Source of the DNA: Escherichia phage vB_Eco_F27
Sequence record: OP870146.1
Reading direction: 5' to 3' (one strand)
Length of the DNA: 64,000 nt
This document shows positions 3,293 to 44,668 of this stretch, in pieces. The notes beneath the pieces were generated by a model. The model was not told the DNA's origin and searched no databases. It saw only the letters and a program-made list of their open reading frames with translations. The translations under genes were made by a program, and so were the position numbers. The stretch's first letter is position 1; every line of letters starts with the position of its first letter.

Positions 3293-4255
3293 TTATTTCC
3301 AAGTCAATTCACAAGTCAATTGAAGAAGCATATACATAACATGTAATTCAATATTACTAGCTAGTCCATGAAACTTATTATTTTCACCTGCAATTTCATA
3401 AAGCGAAATAATACTTTTACCTGGTGCGACTTTGTCATAACACTCAGAAACTAATTTATCGATGAACCATGAATAATCAGCGGCATATTTTGGAGCTAAT
3501 GCACGAAGCTGTTTGATATCTTTATTTTTCATTGCTTCTATGACATCATCTACCGTGCCACGATCATTGGTTACAATCGACAAAATACCTGCATCAAGAA
3601 CACCTTTAGACGAGTACTGGTCTAATTGACCAATTGTACGACGAAAGTCCGGGAAGTTCTTTTTAACCAGAGCTGCAACAACTTTCATGTCAGCGATTTC
3701 GATATTTTCGTTCTTACAGATTTCAACCATACGATGAATCATTTTCTTCATCATCGAGATTTTATCTTCTTCGGTTGGACGACCGAATTCGATAACTCGA
3801 CAACGACTACGTAACGGTTCGATAATTCCATCGATGTTGTTGGCAGTAATAATAATAGAACAGTTACTAGAGAATTCTTCCATGAATGTACGAAGGTGTC
3901 GTTGTGATTCAGCAAGGCCACTACGGTCAAATTCATCGATAACGATAACTTTAGGCTTGCCTTCCATTGAGACTGAACGAGCAAATGCAGTTAACGGACC
4001 GCGTACAAAATCAATTTTACAATCAGAACCGTTGACGAACATCATTTCAGCGTTGATATCGTTACATAATGCTTTTGCCACGGTTGTTTTACCGGTACCA
4101 GGAGAAGGAGAGTGTAAAATAATATGAGGAAGTTTTCCTTTAGATACTAAAGACTTGAATGTTTCATGGTCATACGCAGGCAGAATACATTCGTCAATGG
4201 AAGAAGGACGATATTTCTGTTCTAGAATGTGTTCTTTGGAATTGATAGTAATCAT
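3293..4255 (-). CDS. 44: clamp loader ATPase subunit gp44
   Basis: 320 aa; Walker [20 protein letters not shown]-like [11 protein letters not shown] motif; strong match to T4 gp44. Confidence 0.92.
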
Positions 4256-4330
4256 GTAATTTTCCTCATTATCATTAAACTGGAGGATTTCTCCTCCATA
4301 ATCGTACTACATTAAACGTAAAGCTTTGAC

Positions 4331-5017
4331 TTAGAAGTCGTGAGTAGAATCGGCTTCCATCGCAATAACATAACTTACTTGAGAGCTTTCAAACTTGGCT
4401 GCAACTTTATCACCAGCTCCCCACAACATTACTTTATAGTTACCTGGCTGGATTTTCATATTAGCCATATTGATTACGAAGTTAAAGTTGTTAGAACCAT
4501 CATAATCGGTAAGAGTCAAAGAATACTTAGGACGAGTTAGTCCGGAATCTTCAACTTTATTATAGCCATTGATAACAATTTTACCATCTTTATTTGTAAT
4601 AGCAATTGTATCAATCTGAAGTCCACGTGAAACTCGAAGCAATTGTTGAAGGTCTTCAGCTTTAATTTCAGTAATCACAGAAGCCACTGGGAATTGAATT
4701 GGCTTATTAGGAAAAACAATGGTGCTCTTGTCGGCAGCAGGCCAATAAACTGTGGAACGTGTATCTGCAATTTTAATATTGCCATCAGTATGCATTGAAA
4801 TTTCGGCATCATCAGACACTAGACTCAAAATGCTTAAGAAGCTATTCAAATCATAAAGTGCTACGTCAAAATCAATTTCATCAGAGATATTTGCTTCCGC
4901 ATAAGTGGTGCCATTAACTGCGCGAGTCATAATAAATTTACCTTGACTCAGCAGAATGCCAGAGTTAATAGAGGCAAAGTTTTTCAGAATAGCGATAGTA
5001 TCTTTAGACAGTTTCAT
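4331..5017 (-). CDS. 45: sliding clamp gp45
   Basis: Start moved to the ATG at 5017 (MKLSKDTIAILKNFASINSG...) preceded by AAAGGAAAT; 228 aa as in T4. Confidence 0.92.
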   Translation of the reverse strand: MKLSKDTIAILKNFASINSGILLSQGKFIMTRAVNGTTYAEANISDEIDFDVALYDLNSFLSILSLVSDDAEISMHTDGNIKIADTRSTVYWPAADKSTIVFPNKPIQFPVASVITEIKAEDLQQLLRVSRGLQIDTIAITNKDGKIVINGYNKVEDSGLTRPKYSLTLTDYDGSNNFNFVINMANMKIQPGNYKVMLWGAGDKVAAKFESSQVSYVIAMEADSTHDF

Positions 5018-31507: not shown

Positions 31508-31816
31508 TCAATTAGAAAATAAATTTATCCAAGATTTTTCTTTAATCAAAAATGGGTCGGAATTAAACGCCATTAAACTTTGAGTGATTAATCCCTTAAA
31601 TGGCCCATCAATAAATTCCATTTTGAAATGTGGAATACTAGTCATCAACCGTGCATTAGGAGCAGTACAAAGAACATGCTGCCCTGCGAACGGACCTTTA
31701 GTTAAACGATATCGTTTAGGTTTAAAATGGTAAATCTCGTAATTTTCTACAAGAGCCCTTTTATTGCATACTGGGCTGTTATAACAATACTCAAAAACTT
31801 CAATAGTGGTCATCAT
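31508..31816 (-). CDS. hypothetical protein (vs.7 position)
   Basis: 102 aa ORF. Confidence 0.45.
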   Translation of the reverse strand: MMTTIEVFEYCYNSPVCNKRALVENYEIYHFKPKRYRLTKGPFAGQHVLCTAPNARLMTSIPHFKMEFIDGPFKGLITQSLMAFNSDPFLIKEKSWINLFSN

Positions 31817-32352
31817 TGCATTCCAATCACAAAAAATTGAGGACGAGCATTACCGCCGATGCAATATTTGCTTTTGCAGCAGTGCTGTACTGTTTTAATG
31901 TGGACATTGTAAATCTTATCCATATCAGGAGCTTTAATAGGCTCGTCAATTATATACAGAATACGAGAAAGCGTTAATCCACGGAATTTAGAACCTTCAT
32001 TGCCAATAAAACTACGAACAGAATCAGTAAATAAACGGAATCGAATATCATCGCTAGAATAACGAGAAAATTCTTTTTTAATGTTGCCAGCAGAAATTTT
32101 AGCATAAGCTGAAGTATTAGAAAGAACAATAACTGTTCCACCATCATATAGCCAATTAACAGCAAAATTAGTTACTGCGGACGATTTACCTGATTGTCTG
32201 CCGCCGTCTAAACGAAGTGTACAGTACTGCTTGAGTACGTCTTCAAATGGTGGGGCATAACCGTTCTTACAAATTTCTTCTACTCTAGCATCAGAATGGT
32301 GTGTAAAAGCATTCATCAGGGATAGATAAGGTCCAGTTAAAAATGTTCTCAT
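31813..32352 (-). CDS. hypothetical protein (vs.8 position)
   Basis: 179 aa ORF. Confidence 0.5.
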   Translation of the reverse strand: MRTFLTGPYLSLMNAFTHHSDARVEEICKNGYAPPFEDVLKQYCTLRLDGGRQSGKSSAVTNFAVNWLYDGGTVIVLSNTSAYAKISAGNIKKEFSRYSSDDIRFRLFTDSVRSFIGNEGSKFRGLTLSRILYIIDEPIKAPDMDKIYNVHIKTVQHCCKSKYCIGGNARPQFFVIGMQ

Positions 32353-32462
32353 TTAGTTTCTCTTTTAGGTTGGGCCATTCCGTGGCGCATGAATTGTCCA
32401 TTTCTGTATTTACCCCTCCAAGTAATTATGAATATACTATCACAATTCTAGGAGATGTAAAC

Positions 32463-32861
32463 TTATTTGTAGGTTTTCATCCAATTCTTGAACAAAGCCG
32501 CGACGTCTTTCTCTTTAACGTTCAGTTTAATGTCCAACATTTTACCGCCCGCTGCTCTCGTTTGACGAATCTTAGCAGTACCGGTTTCACCATTCCACTC
32601 AACATAATATTGCCCAGTGTTCATAGCGATACCGTTGCCAAAGTCTTCGTTATTAGAAGTAGTGAATGCCAACTTCATGGTCTTAGAGACACGGGCCGGC
32701 ATGCCTGTCTGAAGGGCATTACGAACGCGAATAACCTGAGGAGTGGCCTGGGTCAGGTTCTCATTCAGTTCTTCGGTGAACTCTTCAGATTCAAACATCG
32801 CCAAAAGTTCTTTAGATGCAGGAATTACATTCTCTGCGATAAATTCTTTATATGTTTTCAT
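32463..32861 (-). CDS. internal protein-like, with capsid targeting sequence
   Basis: 132 aa starting MKTYKEFIAE, the T4 internal-protein capsid targeting sequence; preceded by a GTTTAC...TGGTATAAT promoter. Confidence 0.6.
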   Translation of the reverse strand: MKTYKEFIAENVIPASKELLAMFESEEFTEELNENLTQATPQVIRVRNALQTGMPARVSKTMKLAFTTSNNEDFGNGIAMNTGQYYVEWNGETGTAKIRQTRAAGGKMLDIKLNVKEKDVAALFKNWMKTYK

Positions 32862-32925
32862 TTTTTGTTTCCTTGTTTGTTTTGATAGAGTAATTATACC
32901 ATATTAATACTTAAGCGTAAACCGT

Positions 32926-33186
32926 TTAAGCTTTACCGCCAGAAATAATTCCGAAGTTGTTAAAATCGTATCCAATATCGTCAACATCTACTTTAGGACT
33001 TACTACAACATAAGCAATTTCACTACGTTTTGCATAGGTGTTTATTTCTTTACCATCACCACCTAAGAAAGAATACCCATTACGTTTTAATGAGCCAAAG
33101 TCTTCCGCATCACCAATGAAAGCTTTAACTTTAAATTTAGGACCTTTGGCATCTGCTTCAACGATAAATTCTTGATACATTTTCAT
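32926..33186 (-). CDS. internal protein-like, with capsid targeting sequence
   Basis: 86 aa starting MKMYQEFIVE. Confidence 0.55.
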   Translation of the reverse strand: MKMYQEFIVEADAKGPKFKVKAFIGDAEDFGSLKRNGYSFLGGDGKEINTYAKRSEIAYVVVSPKVDVDDIGYDFNNFGIISGGKA

Positions 33187-33192
33187 TTTTCC

Positions 33193-33306
33193 TTAGTAAA
33201 TTGATTTACCATAGTATTTGTACCAAGTCGGACGTTGAGCAATTTTTTCATCTAAGCGTGCTTGATTTATCGCAATGGACGCTTCGGACGGGTCATAATT
33301 TCCTCC
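33193..33306 (-). pseudogene. denV: denV (endonuclease V) remnant: start codon plus out-of-frame C-terminal fragment
   Basis: Promoter, RBS GGAGGAAA and ATG ACC CGT (MTR) at 33306 are followed by a stop after 9 codons. The adjacent frame encodes ...[31 protein letters not shown], matching the T4 DenV C-terminus as recalled. Confidence 0.65.
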
Positions 33307-33355
33307 AAGTAGTTGATGAATGTATAGTATCAAAACCCTTGGAGGAAGTAAACAA

Positions 33356-33637
33356 CTATTTTTCTGAAGCGCCTGAAATATATTTTTCAAGACGTTGTTT
33401 CATTAAAGAGCCGTTCTTAGCGATTTCTTCCGGTTTATCGCACATACGCAACAAGGCTTCGAGCTTAACGATATCGCTGGTACGTTCAAATTTGCGAGTA
33501 TCTATCTTACTAGCAAGTTCAGAAATACGTGCTAATAGACTTTCGGCTTCAACCAAAGCTGCACCTAGCTTAGTTGCAAATGTGTCAGTAGCTTCGTTAA
33601 GAATAGATTCTGATAAAAATTCACTATATGTTTTCAT
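33356..33637 (-). CDS. internal protein-like, with capsid targeting sequence (ipIII/ipII position)
   Basis: 93 aa from [10 protein letters not shown]; lies directly downstream of e. Confidence 0.6.
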
Positions 33638-34122
33638 ATATACGCTTTCCAAGTTCCTGTTTTAAATGTTGAGATTACGCGTTTCGCGCGATTAGGTGTC
33701 TGACGATACCATTTAGATTGGGCTAGATTTACTGCCGCTTCGTCCCAACGTTTCTGTTGAAGCATACGAAGAGAATTAGTAAAACCGGCAACGCCTGCTA
33801 CGCCCATTTGGAAGACCATATTGACCAATGCACATCGACGAACAGCATCTAAAGAATCATATACCGGTTTAAGTTTAGCATTACCCAAGATTCCGCGAAC
33901 GGCTTTATCAACGTCTTCATTAAATAGCTTTTCAGCCTCATCAAGGGTAATTGTACCGTTGCATTTACGACCGATCATTCTGTCAAGTTCAGCTTTAGCT
34001 ACGGCTAAAGAAGGGTTCTTTGTTACTAAATGGCCTATGCCAATCGTCCAAAAGCCTTCAGTGTCTTTGTATAAAGTCAGTCTAAGACCTTCGTCATTAC
34101 GAAGCATTTCAAATATATTCAT
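33634..34122 (-). CDS. e: lysozyme (endolysin)
   Basis: [32 protein letters not shown]... 162 aa, near-identical to T4 lysozyme; start set to the ATG at 34122. Confidence 0.93.
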
Positions 34123-34156
34123 AATACCTCCCACGTTTATAGGAGGTATTTATTAC

Positions 34157-34615
34157 TTATAGGAGGGTAGTGAGCACCTTATATAATGATTTGCCCATTA
34201 CATATTCCCATTGAGAAGGTTTAATTAAAGCGAATGCATCAAATTCAGGAATCTGACGTCCGTCTGGGAATGTATGATAGGAATTACAAACACTGTTTCT
34301 GAATTGCTCGTGCTCTACAGGGATGGTATATAGGAACAGATGAATATTCTTATTGTCTGAGTAATGATGTTCACCTAGGTCTTTCAGGAAGGCAGGGTCA
34401 TATTGTGTAAACCCAGTTTCTTCTTCGCATTCACGAATAGCGGCTTCAATAGGAGATTCGCCAGGTTCGACACGGCCTTTAGGAATATCCCACCGATGAG
34501 CTAATGCACCTTTAGGACGAGAACCAGTTACACGGCCCATGAATAATTCTTTATCTTTTGTCATGAAGATAATACCAGCGGACAACTCTTTCACTTTATT
34601 TTTCTTACTCATCAT
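34157..34615 (-). CDS. nudE: Nudix hydrolase
   Basis: 152 aa; Nudix box GRVEPGESPIEAAIRECEEETG. Confidence 0.8.
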   Translation of the reverse strand: MMSKKNKVKELSAGIIFMTKDKELFMGRVTGSRPKGALAHRWDIPKGRVEPGESPIEAAIRECEEETGFTQYDPAFLKDLGEHHYSDNKNIHLFLYTIPVEHEQFRNSVCNSYHTFPDGRQIPEFDAFALIKPSQWEYVMGKSLYKVLTTLL

Positions 34616-44031: not shown

Positions 44032-44295
44032 TTATTTCAAATATATTGCGTATTTTTTATAGCCACCAGGCTCGTGTCGAAGACCTTTATCATTCGCAAA
44101 ACGTTGAATGTTATTGAACTGATTTTCATCAAGTTCGGATGTGTCAAATATGAAAAAGTTTCGTTTGTTGCCAAGCGTGATATGCGGAGTTAAGTCAATG
44201 TTATACAAATTAAGAATATCAGCAATAACCTGATTGACCGCTTTGTTAATTTTCACACCAGACGATTCTGAGATGAATTCGTTGAAAGTTTTCAT
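44032..44295 (-). CDS. internal protein-like, with capsid targeting sequence (ipI locus)
   Basis: 87 aa from MKTFNEFISE. Confidence 0.55.
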   Translation of the reverse strand: MKTFNEFISESSGVKINKAVNQVIADILNLYNIDLTPHITLGNKRNFFIFDTSELDENQFNNIQRFANDKGLRHEPGGYKKYAIYLK

Positions 44296-44356: not shown

Positions 44357-44668
44357 TTATTTTATGCCTTTAGAAGAAATGGTGTTTTGGCGTTTGGTCC
44401 CTGTTTGTGAAAAATCGTGGTTATCGATTTGGTCGACTCGCATAACACCAAATGCAGATTTAATTTTAGCCTTTGAACCTTTTTTGATACTAATTATCAT
44501 ATAAGTATCATTTTTCTTATATTCGAAATTTGTTACTTCAACGCCTTGATTAGAAATTGACTTAATAATAGCATTAGCGTATTCATCATCTAACGGACCG
44601 GTGGTGTTAATAATAAAATTTTTATCGGCTTTAGTAGCTTCAGCGATAAACTCTTGATAAGTTTTCAT
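44357..44668 (-). CDS. internal protein-like, with canonical capsid targeting sequence (ipI locus)
   Basis: 103 aa from MKTYQEFIAE, identical to the T4 internal-protein capsid targeting sequence; the rest of the protein does not match T4 IPI as I recall it. Confidence 0.6.
   Translation of the reverse strand: MKTYQEFIAEATKADKNFIINTTGPLDDEYANAIIKSISNQGVEVTNFEYKKNDTYMIISIKKGSKAKIKSAFGVMRVDQIDNHDFSQTGTKRQNTISSKGIK

Follow-up and report, generated by a model that had tools for sequence, protein, structure and literature searches.

The window analysed here is a stretch of 64,000 nucleotides of DNA from Escherichia phage vB_Eco_F27 (sequence record OP870146.1), and its segment 32463-33637 contains three small open reading frames (ORFs), termed here IPa, IPb and IPc, which begin with a leader resembling the capsid targeting sequence (CTS) of the internal proteins (IPs) of phage T4. 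They lie between the lysozyme gene e and vs.8, around a remnant of denV, and we argue below that they probably encode unrelated internal proteins, which would be packaged in the head and delivered with the DNA. The genes of the locus, in the order of transcription, are as follows:

34157-34615, minus strand: nudE, the first gene in transcription order within 31.8-34.7 kb.
33634-34122, minus strand: lysozyme gene e (Pfam Phage_lysozyme, E=8e-14), the upstream flank.
33356-33637, minus strand: IPa, 93 aa (phrog_3499 'internal head protein', E=1e-46), a member of the RB69 ORF127c family.
33193-33296, minus strand: denV remnant (phrog_1183, profile positions 100-138 only; BLASTP match to the denV C-terminus, E about 1e-21).
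32926-33186, minus strand: IPb, 86 aa, leader MKMYQEFIVE (phrog_2667 'internal head protein', E=4e-21).
32463-32861, minus strand: IPc, 132 aa, leader MKTYKEFIAE (phrog_15461 'unknown function', E=6e-88), a member of the JS98 orf114 family.
31813-32352, minus strand: vs.8 homolog, 89% identical to T4 Vs.8 residues 41-219 (phrog_1488), the downstream flank.

Every gene in 31.8-34.7 kb is on the minus strand, and the transcription order is nudE-e-IPa-(denV remnant)-IPb-IPc-vs.8. The probable start of the lysozyme gene is the ATG at 34122 (the ORF as listed opens at GTG 34134), and its stop overlaps the ATG of IPa as ATGA. The limits of the three CTS-led ORFs, proposed in a first-pass annotation of the letters, are exact both in the ORF list and in the raw sequence, and its remark that they are arranged otherwise than in T4 also holds, the T4 order being e-ipIII-ipII-denV-vs.8. 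Over 22-44 kb the window shares 96-97% identity with JS09, mar005P1, JK42 and other RB69-type phages, and it is assigned to a Mosigvirus phage (RB69/JS09-like). The relatives SHSML-52-1 and AlbertHofmann (Bas47), fetched at the IP locus, belong to the genus Mosigvirus; they share with HMD-9 the order e-IPa-denV-IPb-[variable IP genes]-vs.8, which is the usual Mosigvirus layout. The complete sequence of window positions 32300-33700 was found, in the records searched, in HMD-9 only, and there denV is intact and an extra IPIII-like gene is present.

A six-frame scan of the window with the leader pattern M[KR].[YF].[ED]F[ILVM].E returned 5 matches, against a mean of 0.0 in 200 shuffles, and all of them (5/5) are the starts of ORFs of 86-132 aa on the coding strand. 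Mutagenesis of T4 IPIII has assigned residues 4 and 7 to capsid targeting and residues 8 and 10 to processing, and the prohead protease gp21 is reported to cleave after L/I-x-E (PMC9026906). Y4, F7, I/L8 and E10 are present in the leaders of IPa, IPb and IPc; all three possess the pair of targeting residues (Tyr4 and Phe7) that marks a CTS, and each leader ends in a gp21 motif (L8-S-E10 in IPa, I8-V-E10 in IPb, I8-A-E10 in IPc). The suggestion that these ORFs carry genuine T4-type leaders has thus withstood both the shuffling control and the comparison of key residues. IPb opens (33178-33186, minus strand) with ATGAAAATG; in several public records the start is placed at the second ATG (84 aa, MYQEF...), whose Shine-Dalgarno spacing is better than that of the first. 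The first ATG, which restores the full CTS, is taken as the ancestral start because more distant homologs begin MKTY... The gp21 protease and the gp22 scaffolding core are products of core genes of all T4 relatives according to reviews (PMC9026906). Judged by ORF sizes, the window ends around genes 8-12/wac, so that genes 21 and 22 fall outside it.

Beyond the leaders, the three proteins have little in common with one another or with the classical T4 internal proteins. BLASTP comparisons among IPa, IPb, IPc, T4 IPII and IPIII, and the IPs of three relatives aligned only the first 10-18 residues, with the exception of a weak IPa-IPc alignment that extends to about residue 40 (32% identity). When the three family profiles were compared with each other by hhalign, 10-24 N-terminal columns were matched and nothing beyond, and against the T4 proteins (IPII for the IPb profile, IPIII for the IPc profile) the alignments covered 16-19 columns only. 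No similarity across the mature part that would indicate orthology to IPII or IPIII was therefore found for IPa, IPb or IPc by BLASTP, nor by hhalign for the pairs IPb-IPII and IPc-IPIII. True IPII- or IPIII-like genes were found in AlbertHofmann, SHSML-52-1, HMD-9 and JS98, and not in this window. The first-pass annotation had described the bodies as unrelated to each other and to T4 IPII/IPIII, and named ordinary orthology to the latter as what would overturn it; on both points it stands.

More distant relationships were sought in several ways. Pfam revealed no domain in IPa, IPb or IPc, and a search with the three mature proteins against the sequences of solved structures (PDB chains) gave nothing significant and no match to IPI. 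A similarity of IPc to the target-recognition domain of the C5-cytosine methyltransferase M.HhaI appeared in the single-sequence search (E=0.008; best domain E=0.59, 13.7 bits) and was dismissed, the family profile giving E=0.5. In searches of 5.8 billion clustered proteins, together with an exhaustive HMMER search with the IPc profile over 1.84 billion representatives, the IPa, IPb and IPc families comprised only small CTS-bearing proteins, and the named or located members came from T4-like phages or from Klebsiella/Shigella records. The IPc profile retrieved four strong relatives (P0002, P0033, P0034 and P0035), all of them small CTS proteins, and a 35-aa fragment (P0036). A conserved core is visible in IPc at residues about 55-107, G-x-G-I-A-M-N-T-G-Q-Y-Y-V-E-W-N-G-E-T-G-T-A, and HMMER matched it weakly, in several stretches (E 8e-7 to 8.5e-4), to the tandem repeats of three large proteins that are not from phages (677-1336 aa), one of which has units of the form G-I-A-V-D-x-S-G-N-V-Y-V-T-G...W-N-G-D-G. 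We do not regard these repeat proteins as homologs of IPc; the resemblance is at the level of the motif and is probably due to a shared beta-hairpin.

The cleavage motifs allow the mature products to be predicted. Two members of the IPa family have lost E10 (P0031 has V there and bas37_0261 has K), while all members keep E15 and have L or I at position 13; the functional cut is therefore probably after E15 (L13-N-E15), and maturation there would probably give a product of 78 aa with an isoelectric point (pI) of about 8.1. IPb has a single canonical L/I-x-E site (I8-V-E10), and its predicted mature form would be 76 aa long, with a pI of about 6.4. In IPc the CTS is followed by a variable and acidic stretch (residues 11-34, with 7 D/E and 1 K/R), which closes in L32-N-E34; L32 and E34 are invariant in 16 sequences, P0033 retains ELNEN straight after the CTS, and P0035/Cronus gp114 is devoid of any acidic linker. 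A second cut after E34 would yield a predicted product of 98 aa with a pI of about 10. The second L/I-x-E sites of IPc and IPa parallel the propeptides of the T4 IPs, which are 10-19 residues long (PMC9026906).

The relative P0034 is of a different composition. It is an ORF of 194 aa, located between e and denV on a T4-like metagenomic contig (L008, positions 4001-4585; Logan SRR14654591_561), and behind its one CTS (MKSFDQYIME) the N-terminal half resembles IPb (E=6e-10) and the C-terminal half IPc (49% identity, E=4e-30). Between the two runs the acidic sequence ...KKGK-MTESVELTE-S..., with L-T-E at the position of the L-N-E of IPc. P0034 may be a polyprotein separable by the protease, or an accidental fusion in a hotspot prone to deletions. 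Could IPb and IPc, then, work as a pair or derive from a polyprotein, with one CTS delivering both and the prohead protease separating them? The fusion behind a single CTS with L-T-E in the joint would fit such a scheme, as does the adjacency of IPb and IPc in the window and in HMD-9, but the fusion comes from a single contig of one sample, and adjacent cassettes can fuse accidentally in a deletion-prone hotspot. The distribution of the two genes also speaks against pairing: JS98, Serratia 4S and Erwinia Cronus have no IPb-type gene in the examined regions around their IPc homolog, and IPb occurs in 215 records as opposed to 49 for IPc, so that most IPb carriers must be without IPc. We consider a pairing of this kind quite unlikely.

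These record counts come from tblastn searches with the mature parts of the three proteins. IPa was found in 496 phage records, about 238 of them at >=90% identity (i.e. at least 90%), including RB69 ORF127c, and 258 below 60%; two members of the latter group that were examined (CrRp10 and Bas37) sit at the other IP locus, beside 57A/57B. IPb was found in 215 phage records and IPc in 49, mostly JS98-type coliphages and Marfa-type Klebsiella phages, with relatives at about 50% identity in Serratia and Erwinia phages. IPa is identical (100%) to the HMD-9 protein XRL27973, IPb is 96-98% identical to the proteins of AlbertHofmann, SHSML-52-1 and HMD-9, and IPc is 93-94% identical to JS98 orf114 and to HMD-9 XRL27970. 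RefSeq, like PHROGs, labels IPa and IPb 'internal head protein', and the product label of IPc is 'hypothetical protein' in 40/40 among the matches listed. Pairwise Nei-Gojobori counts against orthologs gave ratios of nonsynonymous to synonymous differences (pN/pS) of 0.10-0.12 for IPc, 0.16-0.26 for IPb and 0-0.09 for IPa; all three are real genes under purifying selection.

The denV gene, by comparison with the intact copies of AlbertHofmann and HMD-9, lacks 310 nt between two AATTATG microhomologies. The length of the deletion is not a multiple of three and the frame is shifted: the original ATG now opens an ORF of 9 codons, and only the last ~35-42 codons of denV are recognizable, out of frame with that start. 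The remnant reported in the first-pass annotation is thus both real and dead. A probe of 91 nt spanning the deletion was searched in phage records and gave a 100% single-piece match in ten records, representing eight phages (among them G4498, G8, BF15, Phaginator, JM17 and FL18), and a 98.9% match in four further records; at least 12 further genomes of Mosigvirus-type phages share an identical junction. Since the junction recurs in other genomes, it is an inherited, circulating allele and not an assembly artefact. Phages with this allele presumably have no phage-encoded UV excision repair by endonuclease V, the pyrimidine-dimer glycosylase. As a result of the deletion, the early promoter and stem-loop of denV are now read directly into IPb.

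This promoter is one of three elements of the early type identified in the locus by motif scanning, all of which were also folded:

33296-33353, minus strand: early promoter GTTTAC-18-TACTAT in a strong stem-loop (-19.7 kcal/mol, z=-4.0), followed by the denV ribosome-binding site (RBS).
32893-32922, minus strand: early-type promoter GTTTAC-18-TATAAT preceded by TG, at the head of the variable IP slot; an identical block of ~70-95 nt with this promoter, the RBS and the CTS start is found ahead of different IP genes in AlbertHofmann, SHSML-52-1 and HMD-9.
32405-32462, minus strand: early promoter GTTTAC-17-TAGTAT in a stem-loop resembling a promoter-early stem-loop (PeSL) (-20.3 kcal/mol, z=-4.6), which closes the slot before vs.8.

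The first of these is also found upstream of intact denV in the relatives, and the third resembles the elements upstream of T4 ipIII and ipII. The element before IPc has no strong hairpin, unlike those before vs.8 and denV. In T4, ipIII, ipII and denV each have the same kind of early promoter.

Comparison of the region from the IPb stop to the vs.8 start with AlbertHofmann, SHSML-52-1 and HMD-9 delimits a cassette slot. On its 5' side, about 58-95 nt are common to the relatives and consist of the GTTTAC-18-TATAAT promoter, the RBS AAGGAAACA and the start of the CTS coding sequence; on its 3' side, about 99 nt are shared with AlbertHofmann and SHSML-52-1 and about 59 nt with HMD-9, comprising the GTTTAC-type promoter in its stem-loop. 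The contents of the slot are unrelated: IPc in the window, a 104-aa IP and an IPII-like gene in AlbertHofmann, an IPII-like gene in SHSML-52-1, and IPc with an IPIII-like gene in HMD-9. IPc has been swapped into a slot that is filled with IPII-like genes in other Mosigviruses. Modular shuffling mediated by PeSLs has been published, and IP differences between closely related T4-like phages have been noted (PMC4122927); the cassette architecture seen here is of this published type.

Such borders raise the question whether the leaders could be relics, the 5' sequence persisting as a DNA recombination site ahead of proteins that are early, cytoplasmic and unpackaged. The promoter, the RBS and the first ~30 coding nt are indeed nearly identical as DNA ahead of unrelated genes, all cassettes have early-type promoters, and no perfect late promoter is near. 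Against it, the functionally critical Y4, F7, I/L8 and E10 (or a nearby L/I-x-E) are kept even where the DNA and the other leader residues differ, as in MKSFDQYIME, and T4 ipII and ipIII, with the same early-promoter architecture, are packaged. We judge this possibility very unlikely.

The traffic of IP genes is not confined to one locus. All three genes are encoded in one of the two T-even IP hotspots, e-denV-vs.8, and two further CTS ORFs occur in the second such hotspot (57B-tRNA) of the window: one of 103 aa (44357-44668, minus strand; MKTYQEFIAE; phrog_2667 'internal head protein', E=2e-38) and one of 87 aa (44032-44295, minus strand; MKTFNEFISE; phrog_7673, E=7e-49). Both lie downstream of 57A/57B-like ORFs and upstream of tRNA genes at 42.8-43.0 kb. 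Together with the three described above, they bring the number of internal proteins encoded by the window to five. The 103-aa protein of the 57B-tRNA locus has 48.5% identity to orf112 of JS98, a gene located there between denV and vs.8; the IPa paralog bas37_0261 is in the ipI locus; and JS98, Serratia 4S and Erwinia Cronus have their IPc homolog in the interval from e to denV. To judge from these positions, IP families move between the two hotspots. The 85-aa IPa paralog (48% identity) is represented by bas37_0261 (L011, 2364-2621; phage KarlGJung/Bas37) and by CrRp10 gp096 (L009, 1971-2228), both at the Tequatrovirus ipI locus, and is probably the same as in the 258 IPa records below 60% identity. 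In its leader, MKTFKEFATK...ITE, E10 is missing and I13-T-E15 is retained. In Bas37 it directly adjoins bas37_0260, the published inhibitor of McrBC.

On all the defining features that a sequence can be tested for, IPa, IPb and IPc qualify as T4-type internal proteins. For proteins of this class it has been established in T4 that the CTS binds the scaffolding core, that gp21 removes it, and that the mature IPs are retained in the head and pass into the cell along with the DNA (PMC9026906). T4 Ip1, Ip2 and Ip3 each block one distinct GmrSD nuclease, without cross-protection, and the authors of that study suggest that GmrSD variants are the target of every gene at either IP locus (PMC12373910). 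The CTS protein Bas37_0260 blocks McrBC (bioRxiv 10.1101/2025.11.20.689424). The small T-even CTS IPs with an assigned function are thus, in 4/4 cases, inhibitors of type IV nucleases. Mosigvirus DNA carries arabinosyl-hydroxymethylcytosine (PMC8594841), and RB69 DNA is cut by GmrSD of the CT596 and UTI89 types (PMC6024577). T4 growth on the strain ECOR17 requires IPIII.

We therefore favour, with a probability of roughly 0.7, the interpretation of the locus as an e-denV-vs.8 IP hotspot with three unrelated CTS proteins that would be packaged, injected and would block type IV nucleases. By analogy with T4, the leader would dock each IP onto the prohead scaffolding core, and a gp21-type protease would cut after L/I-x-E, i.e. 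after E15 in IPa, after E10 in IPb, and after E10 and then E34 in IPc, with removal of the acidic linker. The mature proteins of 76-98 aa would remain in the head and reach the cell together with the DNA, before phage gene expression; each would bind and block a single variant of some modification-dependent nuclease (GmrSD and McrBC are examples) that would otherwise cut the arabinosyl-hydroxymethylcytosine DNA of the phage, and several non-homologous IPs would widen the range of host strains that can be infected. The elements of this scheme differ in strength: IPa, IPb and IPc are very probably packaged internal proteins, their role as anti-defence factors is fairly probable, and that their targets are type IV nucleases is a nearly even call, leaning slightly to the negative. 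The first-pass annotation had spoken of candidate injected effectors; this is now the reading favoured by the literature on such genes, packaging and injection being what we infer.

Or perhaps the proteins are packaged and have a structural role, in the assembly of the core or head or in the neutralization or organization of DNA in the head, with no host target? In T4, loss of IPIII halves the rate of head assembly and lowers the burst size, and the IPs are abundant (about 300 copies each), basic and associated with DNA (PMC9026906); IPc, with its pI of about 10 after the predicted second cleavage, would be similar in this respect, but the predicted mature IPa and IPb are not basic. A structural role favours conservation, and these genes are instead swapped as cassettes between genomes that are otherwise ~96-97% identical. 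Moreover, the T4 IPs are dispensable on laboratory hosts, and all three have anti-restriction targets (PMC9026906, PMC12373910). A purely structural function is accordingly held to be unlikely.

Another explanation retains injection and places the action elsewhere than in type IV restriction, i.e. on other early defences, on competing phages, or in host take-over in the manner of Alt, a head-packaged T4 protein which illustrates that other targets can be hit (PMC9026906). The bodies of IPa, IPb and IPc have no homology to any characterized IP, and ip4-10 have no reproducible GmrSD partner, both of which speak for this explanation. On the other side, all four small T-even CTS IPs with an assigned function inhibit type IV nucleases, and a protein delivered together with the DNA is best placed against enzymes that cut incoming modified DNA. 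Overall, this alternative seems rather unlikely.

Several observations weigh against the preferred interpretation of type IV nuclease inhibitors packaged in the head. The predicted mature IPa and IPb are near-neutral (pI about 6.3-8.1), as opposed to the basic T4 IPII and IPIII (pI about 9.6). Homology of IPa, IPb or IPc to an IP of known target was not found, in direct comparisons with IPII, IPIII and Bas37_0260 and, for IPI, in the search of PDB chains. AlphaFold2 models were unusable (mean pLDDT, the predicted local distance difference test score, of 42 for IPc with 16 sequences and 50 for IPb with 7 sequences), the alignments being too shallow because the families occur in T4-like phages only. 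The coding strand has no perfect TATAAATA late promoter in 31.7-34.8 kb, so late expression for packaging has to be assumed. Silas et al. combined ip4-10 with 15 GmrSD groups and obtained no reproducible new pair (PMC12373910); the equation of an IP with a GmrSD inhibitor is therefore not yet general. Finally, no published virion proteomics was found for the three families, and the proteome of a Klebsiella Jiaodavirus was not traced to these genes. As to the promoters further upstream, T4 and HMD-9 have two perfect late promoters TATAAATA ahead of the lysozyme gene e, and the window (34120-34170, minus strand) and AlbertHofmann have only the imperfect ones TATAAGTA, AATAAATA and TATAAAC.

Comparison with known systems helps to delimit what can be transferred to these proteins. 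They resemble T4 IPII and IPIII in the hotspot, the 10-residue CTS (MKTYQEFIAE in T4), the early promoter with a AAGGAAACA-type RBS and the small size, and by inference in the prohead core, gp21 cleavage and the route of injection. They differ in having no similarity past residues 10-24, in gene order and number, and in the mature IPa and IPb not being basic, and the GmrSD targets of T4 Ip2 and Ip3 are not transferable to them. T4 IPI* (Ip1), which inhibits the GmrSD of E. coli CT596, is likewise small and CTS-led, and has a propeptide of more than 10 residues, like those implied by the predicted second sites of IPa and IPc; it serves as the functional model of the class, is encoded at the 57B-tRNA locus, and the comparison, made by PDB-chain search only, gave no match. 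Bas37_0260 of KarlGJung (77 aa) has a leader of the type MKTYQEFIAE and demonstrates that IPs can target type IV enzymes beyond GmrSD. A relationship of the window IPs to this McrBC inhibitor was considered and rejected, direct comparison showing it not to be homologous to any of the five CTS proteins of the window; only its neighbour bas37_0261 is related, as a paralog of IPa. The direct orthologs are RB69 ORF127c and the Mosigvirus RefSeq 'internal head protein' entries for IPa and IPb, and JS98 orf114 for IPc (93-100% aa identity, same hotspot), with the difference that JS98, Serratia 4S and Erwinia Cronus carry the IPc homolog before denV (e-denV), and here it follows denV. The Dar (defence against restriction) proteins of phage P1 are also packaged in the head and co-injected, and they protect DNA from restriction (PMC12810830); they belong to an unrelated lineage, use another packaging mechanism, are larger and act against type I restriction, and serve as an analogy only.

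The variability of the IP class is already known: from Repoila et al. 1994 (as cited in PMC3012670) to later reviews, T-even IPs have been described as diverse, with only the CTS in common, and as engaged in an evolutionary arms race against restriction enzymes, the same genes and layout are present in many Mosigvirus genomes, and IPa and IPb are annotated. The additions made here are the assignment of the JS98 orf114 family (IPc) to the CTS proteins, with a second predicted cleavage site that is conserved, the identification of E15, and not E10, as the conserved predicted cut of IPa, the borders of the cassettes, the denV deletion allele shared between phages, and the IPb::IPc fusion. A more specific proposal, which we offer tentatively and hold to be doubtful as a whole, is that IPa and IPb (typical of Mosigvirus) and IPc (an import from the JS98 lineage) would each inhibit one of the type IV subtypes for which an inhibitor is not yet known, such as the UTI89-type GmrSD restricting RB69 or one of the five active GmrSD groups left without a partner by Silas et al. 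IPc would then be processed in two steps, with the acidic linker masking a basic domain, and P0034 would represent the delivery of a two-effector polyprotein by a single CTS.

These findings leave the current picture of the T-even internal proteins unchanged and add well-delimited test cases to it. Only four small T-even IPs have known targets, and the three families described here are widespread (496, 215 and 49 records), IPc not having been flagged as an internal protein in public annotation; IPa, IPb and IPc are thus candidate partners for type IV restriction systems that are still orphans. Since internal proteins come into play as soon as infection begins and influence which wild E. coli strains a T-even phage can infect, they matter for the prediction of host range and for the choice of therapeutic phages.

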